Sequence record: NC_054928.1
Reading direction: 5' to 3' (one strand)
Length of the DNA stretch: 64,000 nt
Source: Escherichia phage vB_vPM_PD112
Shown here: one piece after another, positions 9,254 through 37,292 of the stretch
Layout: every line of letters starts with the position of its first letter
How positions within the stretch are numbered: the first letter of the stretch is position 1
The notes under the pieces: model-generated
Seen by the model: the letters and a program-made list of their open reading frames with translations, nothing else
Databases searched by the model: none
What the model was told of the DNA's origin: nothing
Made by a program: the position numbers and the translations under genes

Positions 9254-9724
9254 TTAATCATGTTTCCACACCCCATCGGTATTTGACCAAAGTCGCTGAT
9301 TATCTGATCCTCGCCACAGCTTTTTGGTCGGAAGATTTTTCTCATACTTCCCATCAATAATAACATCAACATATTTAAGCATTTCTAGTTGTTTAATATC
9401 TTCAAACTTATATCCTGTCCACAACCAAATGCTTTTATTGGGATAAAGATTTTTTACTGTTTGAACAATGCAATGAACATCATCTCGGTTATCAGGATAA
9501 AGAGGGTCTCCTCCAGTTATAGTTAATCCTTCTATATAATCATTATTCAAACATTCAATTAATTGTTCTAGTGTTTCACCAGTGAATGGAACGCCATTTC
9601 TAGCATTCCATGTTGATTTATTATAACACCCTTCACATTTATGCAAACACCCCGTAACGAAAAGAACGACCCTGCATCCAGGGCCATTTACAAAGCAGCA
9701 CGGGTATATTCTGTCATAATTCAT
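9254..9724 (-). CDS. nrdG: anaerobic ribonucleotide reductase activating protein NrdG (radical SAM)
   Basis: CxxxCxxC cluster (CLHKCEGC); ATG at residue 8 gives 156 aa as in T4. Confidence 0.85.
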   Translation of the reverse strand: MNYDRIYPCCFVNGPGCRVVLFVTGCLHKCEGCYNKSTWNARNGVPFTGETLEQLIECLNNDYIEGLTITGGDPLYPDNRDDVHCIVQTVKNLYPNKSIWLWTGYKFEDIKQLEMLKYVDVIIDGKYEKNLPTKKLWRGSDNQRLWSNTDGVWKHD

Positions 9725-9963
9725 AATAATATCCAATTTTTCCAAGCTTCATCAGTAGAATTACAGCGTTTTAGTATAAGATGTCTAGAAACTTTTATGG
9801 CATTTGAGCACTTTTTAATTGAATCATATTTTAATAAAGCGGCACGAATCAATGTTCCTGACCCCATATAACCGTCATTTATGTTATCGGTGCTATGCGC
9901 ACCGATATATTCCTTTGAATTAATTATATTTGTTATTTTATAAATTATATAATACCTATGCAT
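9721..9963 (-). CDS. GIY-YIG nuclease domain-only ORF (truncated seg-like homing endonuclease remnant)
   Basis: 80 aa with YIIYKITN...EYIGAHST motif similar to segB N-terminus; no DNA-binding domain; overlaps nrdD 3' end by 8 nt. Confidence 0.55.
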   Translation of the reverse strand: MHRYYIIYKITNIINSKEYIGAHSTDNINDGYMGSGTLIRAALLKYDSIKKCSNAIKVSRHLILKRCNSTDEAWKNWILL

Positions 9964-11773
9964 GTTTTACTCGTTTTACCATTTCTTTCATTTTACCTAA
10001 ATTCCATGGAACAACGCTAGGAGTTCCAAGATATCCGCATGTTCTTCTTATGGTGTTCATCTTTTTAGGATCAGTTTCTCCACAAATAGAACAAACAAAT
10101 CCGTTCTCGGTTGGAGTCATTTCATGGGTACTTCCACACGTAAAACATTTATCTACTGGCATATTAACGCCAAAATAATCTAAATGTTGTGCAGCATAAT
10201 CCCATACAGCCTCAAGGCCTTTTAGGTTATTTTTCATATCAGGAAGTTCAACATAAGAAATGTGACCGCCTGTCGCGATGAAATGATATGGGGCTTCGCG
10301 AGAAATCTTTTCAAATGGAGTAATATTTTCTTCTACTGAAACGTGGAAACTGTTAGTGTACCAGCCTTTATCAGTAACATCTTTTACACTTCCATATTTT
10401 TCGGTATCAAGTTTACAGAAGCGATAGCACAGGTTTTCAGCAGGAGTAGAATACAAGCTAAAAGCAAATCCGGTTCTTTCAGTCCACTGCTTAAGATGAG
10501 TATTCATTTTAGTTAAAATTTCTTGTCCAATATCACGACCGACAAGAATATTCAATTCGTGAATACCAATGTATCCTAGGGACACTGAACTTCTACCATT
10601 TTTAAATAACTCAATTATATCGTCATCAGGTTTAAGACGAACCCCGAATGCACCTTCCTGGTAAAGAATAGGAGCAACAGTAGCTTTAACTCCTTTTAAG
10701 GAACTAATTCTACACATCAATGCTTCAAAACATAAATCCATTCGTTCATTGAACAATTCGGCAAATTTCTGTTCATTGAACTGTGTTCCAATATAAGAAT
10801 CTAATGCAATACGAGGAAGATTCAGTGTTACAACACCAAGATTATTACGTCCATCAAGAATTTCATTACCAGTCGAATCTTTCCATACGCCCAAGAAACT
10901 ACGGCAACCCATTGGAGAAACAGGAATAGATGAACCGGTGATAGCTTTATTGTTCTTAGCCGAAATGATGTCAGGATACATTCTTTTGCTTGCGCACTCT
11001 AAAGCAAGCTGCTTAATATCATAGTTCGGATCGTCTTTATAAAGATTAACACCTTCTTCAACGAACATAACAAGTTTAGGGAAAATAGGAGTTATCCCAT
11101 CACGACCGAGACCTTTAATACGATTTTTCAGAATTGCTTTCTGAATCATTCGTTCAGTCCAGTCAGTTCCCGTACCAAATGTAATTGTTACAAAAGGAGT
11201 TTGTCCGTTTGAACTAAAGAGAGTATTTACTTCATATTCATAAGCTTGGAACGCATCGTATACGTCTTTTTCTGTTTTAGATTGGGCATAATTCAACGCA
11301 TCAGTGATTTGCCATTTTTCCGCGTCCTCAATATGTTTCGCATAGGTGCGTTTAACATAAGGAGAAAGTACTTTATCTACATTCGCAAAAGTCGTTCCGC
11401 CATATTGATGAGAAGCAACCTGTGCAGTAATTTGTGCCATAATTGCAGTAGCAACGCCAATTGATTTAGGAGTTTCAATCTGTGCATTACCGAGCTTAAA
11501 TCCGTTCTCAAGCATTCCTTTTAAATCTACTAAACAGCAATTAGTAAAAGGCAATGATATACTGTAATCTAAATCATGAAAATGAATTAACCCGGCATTA
11601 TGAGCATTTACAATATGGCTTGGAAGAATACTGCAAGCGATATGTTTAGAAACAATACCGGCCATTAAATCTCTTTTTGTTGGAAAGACACGAGAATCTT
11701 TGTTGGCGTTTTCGGTATTTAATTCTTTATCTTTATTTGAAATAAAATTTAAAACATCTTTCTCTAAAGACAT
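9956..11773 (-). CDS. nrdD: anaerobic ribonucleoside-triphosphate reductase NrdD (glycyl radical enzyme)
   Basis: 605 aa continuous ORF; C-terminal glycyl radical motif RRTCGY and Zn-ribbon cysteines. Confidence 0.9.
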   Translation of the reverse strand: MSLEKDVLNFISNKDKELNTENANKDSRVFPTKRDLMAGIVSKHIACSILPSHIVNAHNAGLIHFHDLDYSISLPFTNCCLVDLKGMLENGFKLGNAQIETPKSIGVATAIMAQITAQVASHQYGGTTFANVDKVLSPYVKRTYAKHIEDAEKWQITDALNYAQSKTEKDVYDAFQAYEYEVNTLFSSNGQTPFVTITFGTGTDWTERMIQKAILKNRIKGLGRDGITPIFPKLVMFVEEGVNLYKDDPNYDIKQLALECASKRMYPDIISAKNNKAITGSSIPVSPMGCRSFLGVWKDSTGNEILDGRNNLGVVTLNLPRIALDSYIGTQFNEQKFAELFNERMDLCFEALMCRISSLKGVKATVAPILYQEGAFGVRLKPDDDIIELFKNGRSSVSLGYIGIHELNILVGRDIGQEILTKMNTHLKQWTERTGFAFSLYSTPAENLCYRFCKLDTEKYGSVKDVTDKGWYTNSFHVSVEENITPFEKISREAPYHFIATGGHISYVELPDMKNNLKGLEAVWDYAAQHLDYFGVNMPVDKCFTCGSTHEMTPTENGFVCSICGETDPKKMNTIRRTCGYLGTPSVVPWNLGKMKEMVKRVKHA

Positions 11774-12585
11774 AATTCTAATTTATCCTTTTGAAATTCT
11801 TCGTCTAAATATGGGTTCCAACCCATTTTAAACCTTTTGATGAAATTATCAATTCTAAATTTCGGTAAGTTTAAATCCGCAAAAATAGATGATTTACTTT
11901 TAAAATCTGGACCTAAATAATCATATAAAATTTCTGCGTATTTTAACCATAATATATAAGTACCAGATTTAATTGCTCTCGGAGTTTTCCAAGGTTTTAC
12001 ACCATACATCGGATTTCCACTTCCTTTATGCCTGATAGAAGATGAAATTCCAATTTTAATTTTAGCTTCCTCTGTATGCGAAAATCCATGATGTGGATTT
12101 TCTTTCCAGTATTTTTTAGAAGCTTCTGATATTTTCTTTCTGGCTAAATTAGTATGATGCTTTCCATAAAATCCATGATTTTTACCTTTATTACGATTTC
12201 TTTTAATCATGGTTATTGATTGCTTTTTTCTAGTTTCTTTAGAAGGAGAAACACCGTATGTTGTAAATTGACCATTAGCATATGCTAAATTAAAATACTC
12301 TTTATTCCATATATCTTTTTCTATATTCTTTTGAAATTCAGCTTCAATGCTAGTTATTTGCTCATCTCCGACTAATTGAAAATATAATATTTCAACTTTC
12401 GGCGTTTCTTTCAACAGGGCTTTTTGAAATTCGGAAGATGACGAAGACGAATAATAAAATTTACCATTTTTATCAATAATATTCGTTCCGTCAAAAGTGC
12501 AATTGGTTTTACTTCCAATATAATAATACGGCGGGGTTTTAGCATTAATTCTACTAATAAATGATAGTTTATATACTACATTCAT
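11764..12585 (-). CDS. putative GIY-YIG family homing endonuclease with NUMOD3-like repeats
   Basis: N-terminal VVYKL...YYYIGSKTN (degenerate GIY-YIG); repeated GxxHxxExKxKIS-like motifs. Confidence 0.55.
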   Translation of the reverse strand: MNVVYKLSFISRINAKTPPYYYIGSKTNCTFDGTNIIDKNGKFYYSSSSSSEFQKALLKETPKVEILYFQLVGDEQITSIEAEFQKNIEKDIWNKEYFNLAYANGQFTTYGVSPSKETRKKQSITMIKRNRNKGKNHGFYGKHHTNLARKKISEASKKYWKENPHHGFSHTEEAKIKIGISSSIRHKGSGNPMYGVKPWKTPRAIKSGTYILWLKYAEILYDYLGPDFKSKSSIFADLNLPKFRIDNFIKRFKMGWNPYLDEEFQKDKLELCL

Positions 12586-20878: not shown

Positions 20879-20908
20879 ATAGTACCATAAAGCTTTATGC
20901 TTGTAAAC
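20879..20908 (-). promoter_or_regulatory. T4-type early promoter
   Basis: GTTTACA N17 TGGTACTAT; follows terminator hairpin. Confidence 0.5.
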
Positions 20909-20937
20909 CGTTTTGTGAAAAATTTTTGAAATAAAAA

Positions 20938-20958
20938 AGGGAGCCCGAAGGCTCCCTA
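20938..20958 (-). terminator. rho-independent terminator after nucleotidyltransferase gene
   Basis: GGGAGCC-TTCG-GGCTCCC hairpin followed by T-run on minus strand. Confidence 0.65.
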
Positions 20959-29671: not shown

Positions 29672-29885
29672 ATTTTACTTCCTCACCTGTTCCCAAATCA
29701 TATTCAACTAAACGAATAGGTTCATGAATTCCATATCCTTGAACAGAAATTTCTGTCGTAGGATAAATTCCATCAATATCGCCCATATTCCACGCTTCAT
29801 TAAATTGCTGTTCGCCTGAATTACTAAACCACTCGGCGAAAGCATTTAGCACATCTTCAGAACCTTCAATAATTATCTTTGCCAT
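29664..29885 (-). CDS. hypothetical protein
   Basis: ORF track. Confidence 0.45.
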   Translation of the reverse strand: MAKIIIEGSEDVLNAFAEWFSNSGEQQFNEAWNMGDIDGIYPTTEISVQGYGIHEPIRLVEYDLGTGEEVKYD

Positions 29886-30247
29886 TACAAACTCTCAGTA
29901 AAGGTACGAGCAATAACGTCGCGTTGCTGTTCCGGAGTCAGAGAGTTAAAGCGAACTGCGTATCCGGATACACGGATGGTCAGCTGCGGATATTTTTCCG
30001 GATGCTTAACTGCATCTTCCAGAGTTTCACGACGCAGAACGTTTACGTTCAGGTGTTGACCACCCTCAATTTTAACTGTAGGCTGTGTTTCAATTTCAAT
30101 TTCACGGGCATGCAAACCATAGAAAATTTCTGGGTCTACAAAAGAGTCCTCTTTAAAGGTTTTAGAGACAATAATTCGTGCTTGAATACCATCTTCAAAA
30201 TAAATAGTACCTTTATGTGTGCCTTCAAGAATTTGATATGCTTTCAT
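29885..30247 (-). CDS. grcA: autonomous glycyl radical cofactor (GrcA/YfiD-like; T4 Y06I family)
   Basis: C-terminal 60 aa with RVSGYAV glycyl radical motif match recalled E. coli GrcA; 3' coding segment visibly GC-richer than surroundings. Confidence 0.85.
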
Positions 30248-30254
30248 ATAAACC

Positions 30255-30635
30255 TCAATTAGAAAATAAATTTATCCAAGATTGTTCTTTAATTAAAAAT
30301 GGCTCAGAATCATATGCCATTAAACTCTGTGTGATTAGTCCTTTAAAAGGCCCATCAATAAATTCCATGGTAAAGTATGGAATTTTATTCATTAATCTCG
30401 CATTAGGAGCAGTACATAAAACTCTGCATCCTTTGAATACGCCTTTTTGCAATTTGTATTGCTTAGGATAAAATTCGCTTAAAATGTTATTTTTTGCCAA
30501 AATTTCAAAATGATTCACCAATTTATTTTTAATAGTTTTTGGTGAAAAATAAAGATATTCGAAAAGCTGAGTGTCTGTCATCATTGCATTCCGATTACGA
30601 AAAACTGTGGACGAGTAATACCACCAATGCAGCAT
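30255..30635 (-). CDS. hypothetical protein
   Basis: ORF track. Confidence 0.45.
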
Positions 30636-31171
30636 TTACTATTGCAGCAGTGTTGCACAGTTTCAATATGAATATCGTAAATTTTATCCATATCAGGAGA
30701 TTTAACAGGCTCATCGATTATATACAAAATTCGAGAAAGCGATAAACCTCTGAACTTGCTACCTCTATTACCAACAAAACTACGGACAGAATCAGTAAAT
30801 AAACGGAATCGAATATCATCGCTAGAATAACGAGAAAATTCTTTTTTAATGCGGCCCGCAGAAATTTTAGCGTAAGCTGAAGTATTAGAAAGAACAATAA
30901 CTGTTCCACCATCATACAACCAATTAGCGGCAAAATTAGTTACTGCAGTTGATTTACCAGATTGTCTGCCACCATCTAAACGAAGTGTACAATATTCTTT
31001 AAATAAATGCGACGAATCAGGTACATAAAATCCACTATTACAAATTTCTTCTACTCTAGCATCAGAATGGTGTGTAAAAGCATTCATCAGGGATAGATAA
31101 GGACCAGTTAAAAATGTTCTCATTTTATTCTCTCTAAATTTGGGCCATTCCATGGCGCATGAATTGTCCAT
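30581..31171 (-). CDS. P-loop NTPase-like protein
   Basis: Walker A GGRQSGKST, Walker B-like ILYIIDEP; start may be internal Met (residue 17, near 31123). Confidence 0.5.
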   Translation of the reverse strand: MDNSCAMEWPKFRENKMRTFLTGPYLSLMNAFTHHSDARVEEICNSGFYVPDSSHLFKEYCTLRLDGGRQSGKSTAVTNFAANWLYDGGTVIVLSNTSAYAKISAGRIKKEFSRYSSDDIRFRLFTDSVRSFVGNRGSKFRGLSLSRILYIIDEPVKSPDMDKIYDIHIETVQHCCNSKCCIGGITRPQFFVIGMQ

Positions 31172-31264
31172 TTCTGTATTTACCCATTACCGCACTTGGG
31201 CTCGACCTTATTACAGGTTGGCGGGAATCCCTCACAGAATCATGAGGTCCAGGTTGTTCCCATG

Positions 31265-31738
31265 TTATTTGAACGATTTAACGTACTGAATAGAACCTTT
31301 ACTATTCACGAAAGCGATTTTACCATTTTTATTATACATGGTAGCAGTACGCTGATAACCATAAGTTTGTTTACCAGATTGATAACCAACTAATGCGAAA
31401 TTATCTTCACCCATTTTATTCTGTTTAGCGCGAATACGTTCATGTCCATGCGCCATAAGAACCTTAGCATCACCAGTTGCAATGGATCGACGAGTTTTTT
31501 CATCTTCAACTGTATTAACAAAATCATCAAATGAATCAAATTTAGCATGAGATTTATTATACAGTTTTCCATCTACTGCATAATTATATCCCTGTACATC
31601 CATCTCAACTTCTGTGCCATCATCTAATACAGCAGTAATTTTCTGTCCTTTTTTAAATTTCAAAAGATCAGTAAAAGATTCAGCAATAATTTGAGAATTA
31701 ATAGCTGCTTCAGTAATAAATTCTTGATATGTTTTCAT
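31265..31738 (-). CDS. internal (capsid-packaged) protein with capsid targeting sequence
   Basis: N-terminus MKTYQEFITEA matches T4 internal-protein CTS (MKTYQEFIAEA) with xxE cleavage context; lies next to e as ipIII does in T4. Confidence 0.65.
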   Translation of the reverse strand: MKTYQEFITEAAINSQIIAESFTDLLKFKKGQKITAVLDDGTEVEMDVQGYNYAVDGKLYNKSHAKFDSFDDFVNTVEDEKTRRSIATGDAKVLMAHGHERIRAKQNKMGEDNFALVGYQSGKQTYGYQRTATMYNKNGKIAFVNSKGSIQYVKSFK

Positions 31739-31781
31739 ATGTTTCCTTTAAATGTAAATATTTTAATTAGTAACTGTGAAT

Positions 31782-31811
31782 ATACTATCACAGTTCTAGG
31801 AGAAAGTAAAC
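31782..31811 (-). promoter_or_regulatory. T4-type early promoter upstream of internal protein gene
   Basis: GTTTAC ... TGATAGTAT. Confidence 0.45.
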
Positions 31812-31815
31812 AACT

Positions 31816-32346
<531 letters not shown>

Positions 32347-36872: not shown

Positions 36873-36900
36873 AAAAGCCCCAACCTTTCGGTCGGGGCTA
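36873..36900 (-). terminator. rho-independent terminator ending tRNA/stable-RNA transcript
   Basis: Minus-strand GCCCCGACC-GAAA-GGUUGGGGC (9-bp stem, GNRA loop) then UUUUU. Confidence 0.7.
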
Positions 36901-37215
36901 AGCCTTGCGGCAACCTTGTAGGGGTTCCACCTGCTAAGGCAAGTGTTTGTACGAAACGCCGGGATTCGAACCCGGTTATTAAGTAGTTGACGCTACTCAA
37001 TATTTTTAAAAGGCCATATCTCGACCATATCCGAACGTTCCGTCAAAAACGCTACTCGGCTTACGGCAAAGATATTTCCTCGAATCGATAATTTGGTGCG
37101 CCGTTTCTGCTGTGATGTAAGAGGGCATCAACAAATCATAAAGATTTATTAACACAATTCCTTACCCAGGGAACATCAGTCCGACGACTTACCGGTAGCG
37201 ACCCGGTTTCTTGTT
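36901..37215 (-). ncRNA. putative stable small RNA region (T4 species 1/2 RNA-like), includes a tRNA-like T-arm
   Basis: No ORF; lies between tRNA-Arg and a strong terminator; CCGGGTTCGAATCCCGG T-arm-like element plus 7-bp acceptor-like pairing near 36945-37045; boundaries not resolved. Confidence 0.35.
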
Positions 37216-37292
37216 TGGTCGAGGCAGAAGGATTCTAACCTTCAACCAACGGATTAGAAATCCGTTGCTCTATACAATTGAGCTATGCCCCG
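37216..37292 (-). tRNA. tRNA-Arg (anticodon UCU)
   Basis: Hand-folded cloverleaf; 7-bp acceptor stem with one G-U; anticodon loop TTTCTAA; encoded CCA. Confidence 0.7.

Follow-up and report, generated by a model that had tools for sequence, protein, structure and literature searches.

The vs.6 Locus and Its Product

The window, i.e., the whole 64-kb stretch of DNA analysed, comes from a T4-type phage of the genus Tequatrovirus. The gene under study is an ATG-started ORF of 120 codons plus stop on the minus strand (29885..30247, (−)), and the order of the genes around it is that of phage T4: e (lysozyme), vs.8, vs.7, vs.5, vs.4, regB and vs; in syntenic annotated relatives the ORF is named vs.6, the gene for protein Y06I. 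The vs.6 region matches that of Escherichia phage vB_EcoM_IME537 at 100% and that of T4 at 97.2% identity. A Shine–Dalgarno sequence, GAGG (30253..30256, (−)), can be read from the sequence 6 nt before the ATG, where it overlaps the vs.7 stop codon, and the stop codon of vs.6 overlaps the start codon of vs.5 as TAATG. Further along, the interval between e and vs.8 (within 30581–32310) contains a single 157-aa ORF (31265–31738), the start of which, MKTYQEFITEA, we take to resemble the capsid-targeting leader of T4 internal proteins. In Shigella phage Sso113, denV is located between e and vs.8; a tblastn search with denV of that phage did not detect an endonuclease V homologue in the 64-kb window.

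The predicted protein is identical to T4 Y06I at 119 of 120 residues, the sole change being T54P, and in the public records of many Tequatroviruses exactly this protein is labelled 'autonomous glycyl radical cofactor GrcA'. The Pfam Gly_radical domain (PF01228) was found with a score of 67.2 bits (cutoff 22.2), and a phmmer search gave E. coli GrcA/YfiD (PDB code 6OWR) as the top PDB match, with E=4.6e-42 over residues 22–120; the PDB search also aligned vs.6 residues 58–120 with residues 697–759 of pyruvate formate-lyase (PFL) (E=4.8e-26). The top-scoring family is the NCBIfam equivalog TIGR04365 (spare_glycyl), on which residues 20–120 of the protein align with profile positions 25–126; the score of 154.6 bits misses the curated cutoff of 170 because the N-terminal half has diverged. 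The gene encodes a small stand-alone protein (~14 kDa) with its own Shine–Dalgarno sequence and ATG, which lacks the barrel of the glycyl radical enzymes and carries the RVSGYAV-bearing C-terminal glycyl radical domain, homologous to PFL residues ~693–759; matches to glycyl radical enzyme domains are confined to its C-terminal 42–60 residues. The sequence and the GrcA and PFL alignments predict that the radical is carried by Gly95, the glycine of RVSGYAV (codon GGA, 29963..29965, (−)), which corresponds to Gly102 of GrcA and Gly734 of PflB; the use of GGA, not GGT, is an O157-type synonymous variant. The gene and its biochemical role have been known since 2001, as is the family to which it belongs, so that the window does not introduce a new type of system.

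A Host-Like Tract Within vs.6

The final 60 residues of the vs.6 protein, RVSGYAV included, are 100% identical to those of E. coli GrcA, and the likeness extends to the DNA. Gene nt 179–363 (29885–30069) show 94.6–96.8% identity to grcA in 5426 of 5426 complete E. coli genomes, and in the same genomes nothing upstream of gene nt 179 matched grcA. In the pairwise alignment of vs.6 and grcA, maximum chi-square analysis placed a breakpoint after gene nt 178, between window positions 30070 and 30069 (chi-square 107; 0 of 2000 permutations as extreme), the identity being 44.9% to the left of it (gene nt 1–178) and 94.6% to the right.

Three parts of the gene can be distinguished. The phage-type 5′ part (30070..30247, (−); gene nt 1–178) encodes residues 1–59 and supplies the first base of codon 60. 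The host-derived, Escherichia grcA-like tract (29895..30069, (−); gene nt 179–353) encodes the structured glycyl-radical domain, residues ~60–118; it starts in codon 60 (I60, the counterpart of GrcA V67), immediately ahead of EGGQH, and ends about 10 nt ahead of the stop codon. The phage-type 3′ end (29885..29894, (−)) comprises the last three sense codons, GAG AGT TTG against GAA AGC CTG in the host, and the stop. Three of the ten differences between the window sequence and K-12 grcA are found in these last 10 nt, and the GAG AGT TTG end is present in every Tequatrovirus and Mosigvirus allele examined, with similar codons in other genera; in the comparison with grcA, host similarity does not extend past the vs.6 stop. 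Phage-type sequence of one and the same gene thus lies on both sides of the tract, the signature expected of gene conversion acting on a homologue that was already in place, not of illegitimate recombination by which host DNA was captured.

The window tract is 96–98% identical to E. coli grcA, and its 174-nt core (29895–30068, gene nt 180–353) differs from the O157-type allele at three positions and from the K-12 allele at seven, all of them synonymous. No closer E. coli donor for the window allele was found than the O157-type allele with its three tract differences; the substitutions GAG, TAC and CAA of the window tract are absent from all 5426 E. coli genomes and are either later mutations or the mark of an unsampled donor. 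The genes pflB and tdcE were also considered as donors and were rejected, their nucleotide identity to the tract being just 77–80%. In a megablast search against the same genomes, the host-like tract was the sole stretch of the 64-kb window that matched E. coli genomes generally, and the remaining 63.8 kb gave only one other match, of 52 nt (20890–20941, 96.2% identity), to an unannotated site of strain BE104 alone.

The composition of the gene changes along with its identity. The tract reaches a GC content of 0.494, compared with 0.330 for the 5′ part and 0.347 for the window as a whole, and GC at third codon positions is 0.43 in the tract against 0.18 in the 5′ half. The tract has a GC z-score of 3.2; equally GC-rich 174-nt segments make up 0.35% of those in the window and occur at four places, among them the tRNA cluster and a stretch beside tRNA-Arg. 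This last stretch (36877–37067, GC 0.49), which adjoins tRNA-Arg (37216–37292), gave neither a tRNA call nor an Rfam match at the gathering threshold; in T4, two small stable RNAs are encoded near the tRNA cluster.

The C-terminal protein sequence is so conserved that the DNA identity has to be read against what protein constraint would leave. The measure used here is the synonymous difference, pS, and controls between hosts employ the same 183 nt. Klebsiella phage Kp_GWPR59 (Pseudotevenvirus) has the same C-terminal 60 residues as E. coli GrcA, at a nucleotide identity of 83.6% and a pS of 0.67; on this control, protein constraint accounts for an identity of about 83%, not 95–100%. Between hosts, the pS of E. 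coli grcA is 0.31 to Citrobacter and 0.58 to Salmonella. For the window tract, pS is 0.07 when compared with the O157-type allele and 0.16 when compared with that of K-12, and the tracts of T4 and RB69 have a pS to K-12 of 0.02 and 0.00. The phage tracts (0.00–0.16 to E. coli) are therefore closer to E. coli than the grcA of any other genus compared, which places them within the species-level diversity of E. coli. The 174-nt tract of T4 is the commonest E. coli grcA allele itself, being 100% identical to grcA of about 18 of 40 E. coli genomes sampled evenly down the ranking (~45%). The two halves of host grcA diverge to a similar extent between genera and the gene has a conserved ung–grcA–eamB locus, and both features argue for transfer from host to phage. 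The sequence-only reading of this DNA had identified the gene as a GrcA-like glycyl radical cofactor, matched its C-terminal ~60 residues with those of E. coli GrcA and noted the higher GC content of the DNA that encodes them. These observations hold, and neither of the outcomes that the reading named as refuting it was obtained: the GC content is not uniform, and the nucleotide identity to grcA is far above the level set by the protein. The T4 gene has the same mosaic structure.

Recurrence of Host Sequences in the Tract

About 20 phage alleles, from ~870 full-length matches, were inspected by eye. Between T4 (Tequatrovirus) and RB69 or ATK47 (Mosigvirus), 18–22 of 179 nt differ in the 5′ part (pS 0.31–0.34) and 2–3 of 174 in the tract. 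The 5′ half of RB69 differs by 10% from that of T4 and its tract is equally host-like, so that for this pair pS is 0.31 in the 5′ half and 0.02 in the tract (Fisher p=4e-4, synonymous sites); one codon is the K-12-type CGC in RB69 and CGT in T4. For T4 and phiE142, the respective differences are 18 nt and 0, with pS of 0.31 and 0.00 (Fisher p=4e-5). The window gene and T4 are related in another way: 3 nt differ in the 5′ part and 6 nt, all synonymous, in the tract, and three of these six differences are all three of the sites that distinguish the O157-type allele from T4, with the same bases (hypergeometric P=6.5e-4, 58 third positions).

In the Jiaodavirus Klebsiella phages KP17 and WolfER13 and the metagenome phage L182, the 5′ half is ~72% identical to that of T4, and third-position GC is 0.25 in the 5′ half and 0.57 in the tract. 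The GTDB representative genomes contained no close donor for the Klebsiella-phage tract, the best having 13–18 differences; a degenerate-pattern scan of metagenome contigs revealed host-type 127-aa grcA genes, the protein of which is exactly GRCA_KLEP7 (Klebsiella pneumoniae). Of 174 tract positions, 6–9 separate KP17 and WolfER13 from these genes, and L182 has four synonymous differences and a perfect run of 158 nt. KP17 has three variants in common with a second host allele of the K. pneumoniae group (L180/L186), and the 3′ end points of the tract are not alike in the three phages. The pS between KP17 and WolfER13 is 0.03 in the 5′ half and 0.25 in the tract (p=0.004), the reverse of the T4/RB69 pattern. 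Overall, the tract has a pS of 0.00–0.18 to the grcA of the phage's own host species and 0.37–0.55 to that of the other host, which is on a par with the distance of 0.39 between E. coli and Klebsiella; the Jiaodavirus tracts are of the Klebsiella type, with a pS of 0.09–0.18 to their own host.

As judged from these sequence comparisons, the tree of the tract follows the hosts and that of the 5′ half follows the phages. The overwriting of the tract appears to be recurrent, with several exchange events that involve different donors and end points. At least two host-to-phage events, and probably four or more, would be required, their number being uncertain because phage–phage recombination could spread alleles once acquired. 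Such spread is also the core of the alternative that we consider the least improbable, though still improbable, namely, a single recent transfer from host to phage, followed only by mutation and recombination between phages. T4-like phages recombine freely during co-infection, and most alleles of E. coli phages are only 0–7 nt apart, as this alternative would predict. However, the window gene and T4 have near-identical 5′ halves and tracts that differ at host-polymorphic sites, with the bases of the O157-type allele; KP17 and L182, also near-identical in their 5′ halves, have tracts that differ in accordance with the K. pneumoniae-group alleles L180/L186; the tract type matches the host in both groups of phages; and the 3′ end points vary within Jiaodavirus.

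Conversion is not universal, since in the genera Slopekvirus and Pseudotevenvirus synonymous divergence is saturated with respect to every sampled host. In both genera (Pseudotevenvirus L100–L104 and L005; Slopekvirus L004, L006, L105 and L106), the GrcA C-terminal domain is preserved at the protein level with few or no changes from either the E. coli type or the Klebsiella type, the types being distinguished as LEDAVK against LLDAVE; these could be old conversions that have since drifted, or they could derive from unsampled donors. Two other records deserve mention. In a Jiaodavirus-like genome from IMG/VR (L114, 601–959), vs.6 is frameshifted, leaving a 49-aa ORF within a whole-gene match at 90%, and is either a pseudogene or the result of a sequencing error; a full-length host-type grcA is also present on a record of 275 kb (L031, NZ_CP170105.1) that bears the label of a Klebsiella sp. 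plasmid and may be a chromid or a mis-assigned piece of a chromosome.

The N-Terminal Half and the Ancestry of the Gene

The sequence-only reading had taken the N-terminal 60 residues to be unrelated to GrcA and the gene to be a fusion of a host segment with a phage-specific N-terminus. The N-terminal halves, up to EGGQ, were compared alone, since the conserved C-terminal half would pull the alignment. An hhalign comparison of a profile of 43 distinct phage proteins with a profile of 67 distinct host GrcA proteins clearly indicated homology (probability 98.3%, E=1.4e-14, 59 columns, 27% identity), and when only the 120-aa T4-type proteins were used, the E-value was 6.7e-7. The alignments obtained with BLASTP, phmmer (PDB code 6OWR) and the NCBIfam GrcA model likewise reach back to residues 20–22, and the phage versions L107–L112 possess plainly GrcA-like N-terminal halves.

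Members of the GrcA-like family are found in many genera of Straboviridae, in T5-like phages and in jumbo phages. In other T4-like genera, the 120-aa architecture recurs, but the 3′ half has diverged and does not resemble the host; in most family members, too, the DNA of the 3′ half is not host-like. The homology of the N-terminal halves, the breadth of the family and the mostly non-host-like 3′ halves indicate that the ancestral state was a complete phage homologue of grcA, on which the host-identical tract is a later overlay. Small GrcA-like genes were also noted in Tequintavirus and in jumbo phages of ~350 kb (L008, 1320–1688; L130, L133, L152 and L164; L113, L115 and L116). The C-termini of the T5-like proteins (…TFTQAM) resemble PflB/TdcE more than GrcA, and the DNA of these genes is not host-like (pS 0.62–0.70 to the closest sampled host).

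A single capture, in which a host grcA fragment became fused to an unrelated phage-specific N-terminal coding sequence, would explain the sharp breakpoint at which identity rises from 45% to 95%, as well as the low BLASTP identity to GrcA in the N-terminal part (~33% across 39 residues). It is nevertheless very unlikely: the phage and host N-terminal halves are homologous, also when the comparison is limited to the T4-type proteins, forms with clearly GrcA-like N-terminal halves are intermediate between the two, related genera have the gene with a diverged 3′ half, and the phage-type last three codons leave the host tract flanked on both sides, as conversion predicts. Of the fusion proposed earlier, the host origin of the 3′ half stands and the unrelated N-terminus does not; the homology of the N-terminal halves and the shared architecture in other genera indicate that the mosaic arose by replacement.

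Relationship to nrdD and nrdG

The window also contains the genes of the anaerobic (class III) ribonucleotide reductase system, nrdG (9254–9745) and nrdD (9956–11773), the latter a single uninterrupted ORF of 605 aa without sign of an intron. Its 5′ end is overlapped by 10 nt by an ORF of 273 aa (11764–12585) that carries a homing-endonuclease-like NUMOD3 motif. A functional link between vs.6 and these genes, suggested by the sequence-only reading, was not borne out. In its direct form, vs.6 would be a spare glycyl-radical part for the phage NrdD, activated by NrdG. The two proteins have the Pfam Gly_radical domain in common, nrdD and nrdG lie in the same window, and an earlier comparative genome paper, going by the common domain alone, suggested that the gene takes part in nucleotide metabolism (PMC1524935). 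The direct link is none the less highly improbable, a little more so than the fusion: BLASTP found no significant similarity between vs.6 and the NrdD of the window (E=5.7), the genes are separated by ~18 kb that hold many others, the C-terminal domain is of the PFL/GrcA type, matching PFL residues 697–759 and identical to that of the host, and the published biochemistry, as related in PMC8683613, puts Y06I with PFL and its activase, PFL-AE. The class III reductases characterised so far, of the subtype that includes T4 NrdD, use formate as their reductant; a plausible link between vs.6 and nrdD/nrdG would therefore be at most indirect, through formate made by PFL.

The weakest alternative dispenses with recombination and attributes the host-like 3′ half to strong selection on protein sequence or codon usage, or to convergence; the C-terminal 60 residues are indeed extremely conserved in phages and bacteria, and grcA is highly expressed and codon-biased, but the pS of 0.67 in Kp_GWPR59 at an identical protein sequence, the pS of 0.58 between the codon-biased grcA genes of E. 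coli and Salmonella, and the complete identity of 174 nt of T4 to an E. coli allele reduce its probability almost to nothing.

Proposed Function and Conversion Mechanism

The biochemical role of the protein is set by earlier work on T4. T4 Y06I is named in PMC8683613 as one of two biochemically validated members of the GrcA type; according to the account given there of Wagner 2001 (pmid 11444864), Y06I, like E. coli YfiD, receives a radical from PFL activase, and in complex with it, oxygen-cleaved PFL regains its activity. In YfiD, residues 61–127 take the fold of PFL residues 693–759, and residues 1–60 are disordered yet promote both the binding of cleaved PFL and activation (PMC8683613). The conversion junction in vs.6 (GrcA V67/E68) lies seven residues into the structured domain 61–127, and the converted tract spans the radical loop with Gly95 and the C-terminal helix. 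From this position, the host-identical part would be the part that fits the PFL barrel and is recognised by the host activase, while the disordered half drifts.

The following scheme can be proposed. In the infected cell, oxygen would cleave the host PFL at its glycyl radical, Gly734; the C-terminal domain of vs.6 would replace the C-terminal piece lost from PFL, and the host activase PflA would install a new radical on Gly95 of vs.6, bringing back PFL activity. Under microaerobic or anaerobic conditions, the infected cell, no longer able to make its own proteins, might thereby sustain its output of acetyl-CoA, ATP and formate.

As for the gene, sequence comparison indicates that vs.6 is an old, full-length grcA homologue of phages, the N-terminal half of which diverges fast, and that its radical-domain tract (29895–30069) has been overwritten repeatedly by homologous recombination (gene conversion) with chromosomal grcA. 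Two genera of E. coli phages carry E. coli alleles, different ones in different phages, and a third genus, that of the Klebsiella phages, carries K. pneumoniae alleles with varying 3′ end points. From what is known of T4 biology, fragments of degraded host DNA may supply the donors for the recombination machinery of the phage, much as in marker rescue, and a tract already identical to the host would ease further conversion. Taken together, the evidence makes it very probable that vs.6 is a phage GrcA-type spare part for PFL, a full-length homologue in which one tract has been repeatedly converted by host grcA. That conversion from the chromosome of the current host is still going on and keeps the tract an exact copy of the local GrcA domain is favoured with less assurance, as somewhat the better bet. 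The host identity of the tract may be either selected or a by-product of its being the sole stretch homologous enough to recombine; opportunity for recombination alone may suffice, because Kp_GWPR59 keeps the protein sequence without the DNA identity.

The mosaic structure at the DNA level and the recurrent conversion by host grcA were not found described in the literature searched, which did not include Wagner 2001 and Bowman 2019; either paper may have remarked on the identity of the C-terminus. The dynamics of conversion are a modest, testable addition to a known gene. If ongoing conversion is real, the tract allele records the recent host species, perhaps even the lineage, and could be used to trace the hosts of T-even-type phages; ongoing conversion would also constitute a measurable case of natural recombination between a chromosome and a lytic phage, tractable for the estimation of rates. 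If confirmed, it would point to selection, or at least opportunity, for an exact match of the spare part to the PFL and activase of the host. As an example of a strictly lytic phage that has time and again copied a domain-sized part of a host gene, vs.6 is unusually clean: the identity to the host reaches 100%, and the conversion junction lies near the boundary between the disordered and structured parts of the protein. Caution is also advisable in annotation and contamination screens, as 175 nt of T4-type genomes are genuine E. coli DNA.

Comparison with Known Systems

The closest relative of the window gene is T4 vs.6 (Y06I), with which it shares its identity, the position between vs.7 and vs.5 and the mosaic structure; the window tract differs from that of T4 at six synonymous sites, three of which are O157-type E. 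coli variants. E. coli GrcA/YfiD (6OWR) is likewise a small stand-alone glycyl radical domain, and its C-terminal 60 residues are those of vs.6, but the phage protein is seven residues shorter, its N-terminal half is only ~27–33% identical, and, in contrast to the chromosomal ung–grcA–eamB locus of grcA, its gene lies in an AT-rich cluster of early and middle genes of a lytic phage. The C-terminal glycyl radical domain of PflB and TdcE has the same fold and motif as vs.6, whereas its DNA is 77–80% identical to vs.6, and in PFL the domain belongs to an enzyme of 759 aa.

Among phenomena already on record, intragenic host–phage recombination in cyanophage psbA (PMC1484495) comes closest. In psbA and psbD of cyanophages, as Sullivan et al. 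reportedly described in 2006, such recombination has produced mosaic genes with discontinuities in GC content. Like these genes, vs.6 is a phage copy of a host metabolic gene that trades segments with its host counterpart, and it shows the features of psbA-type mosaicism, i.e., a supported breakpoint, a segment nested within the diversity of the host species and, apparently, several exchange events. Unlike in the cyanophage genes, exchange in vs.6 affects only a single tract of ~175 nt, which encodes one domain and has a fixed limit at its 5′ side; this tract, carried by T-even phages of enterobacteria, matches present-day host alleles at up to 100% identity.
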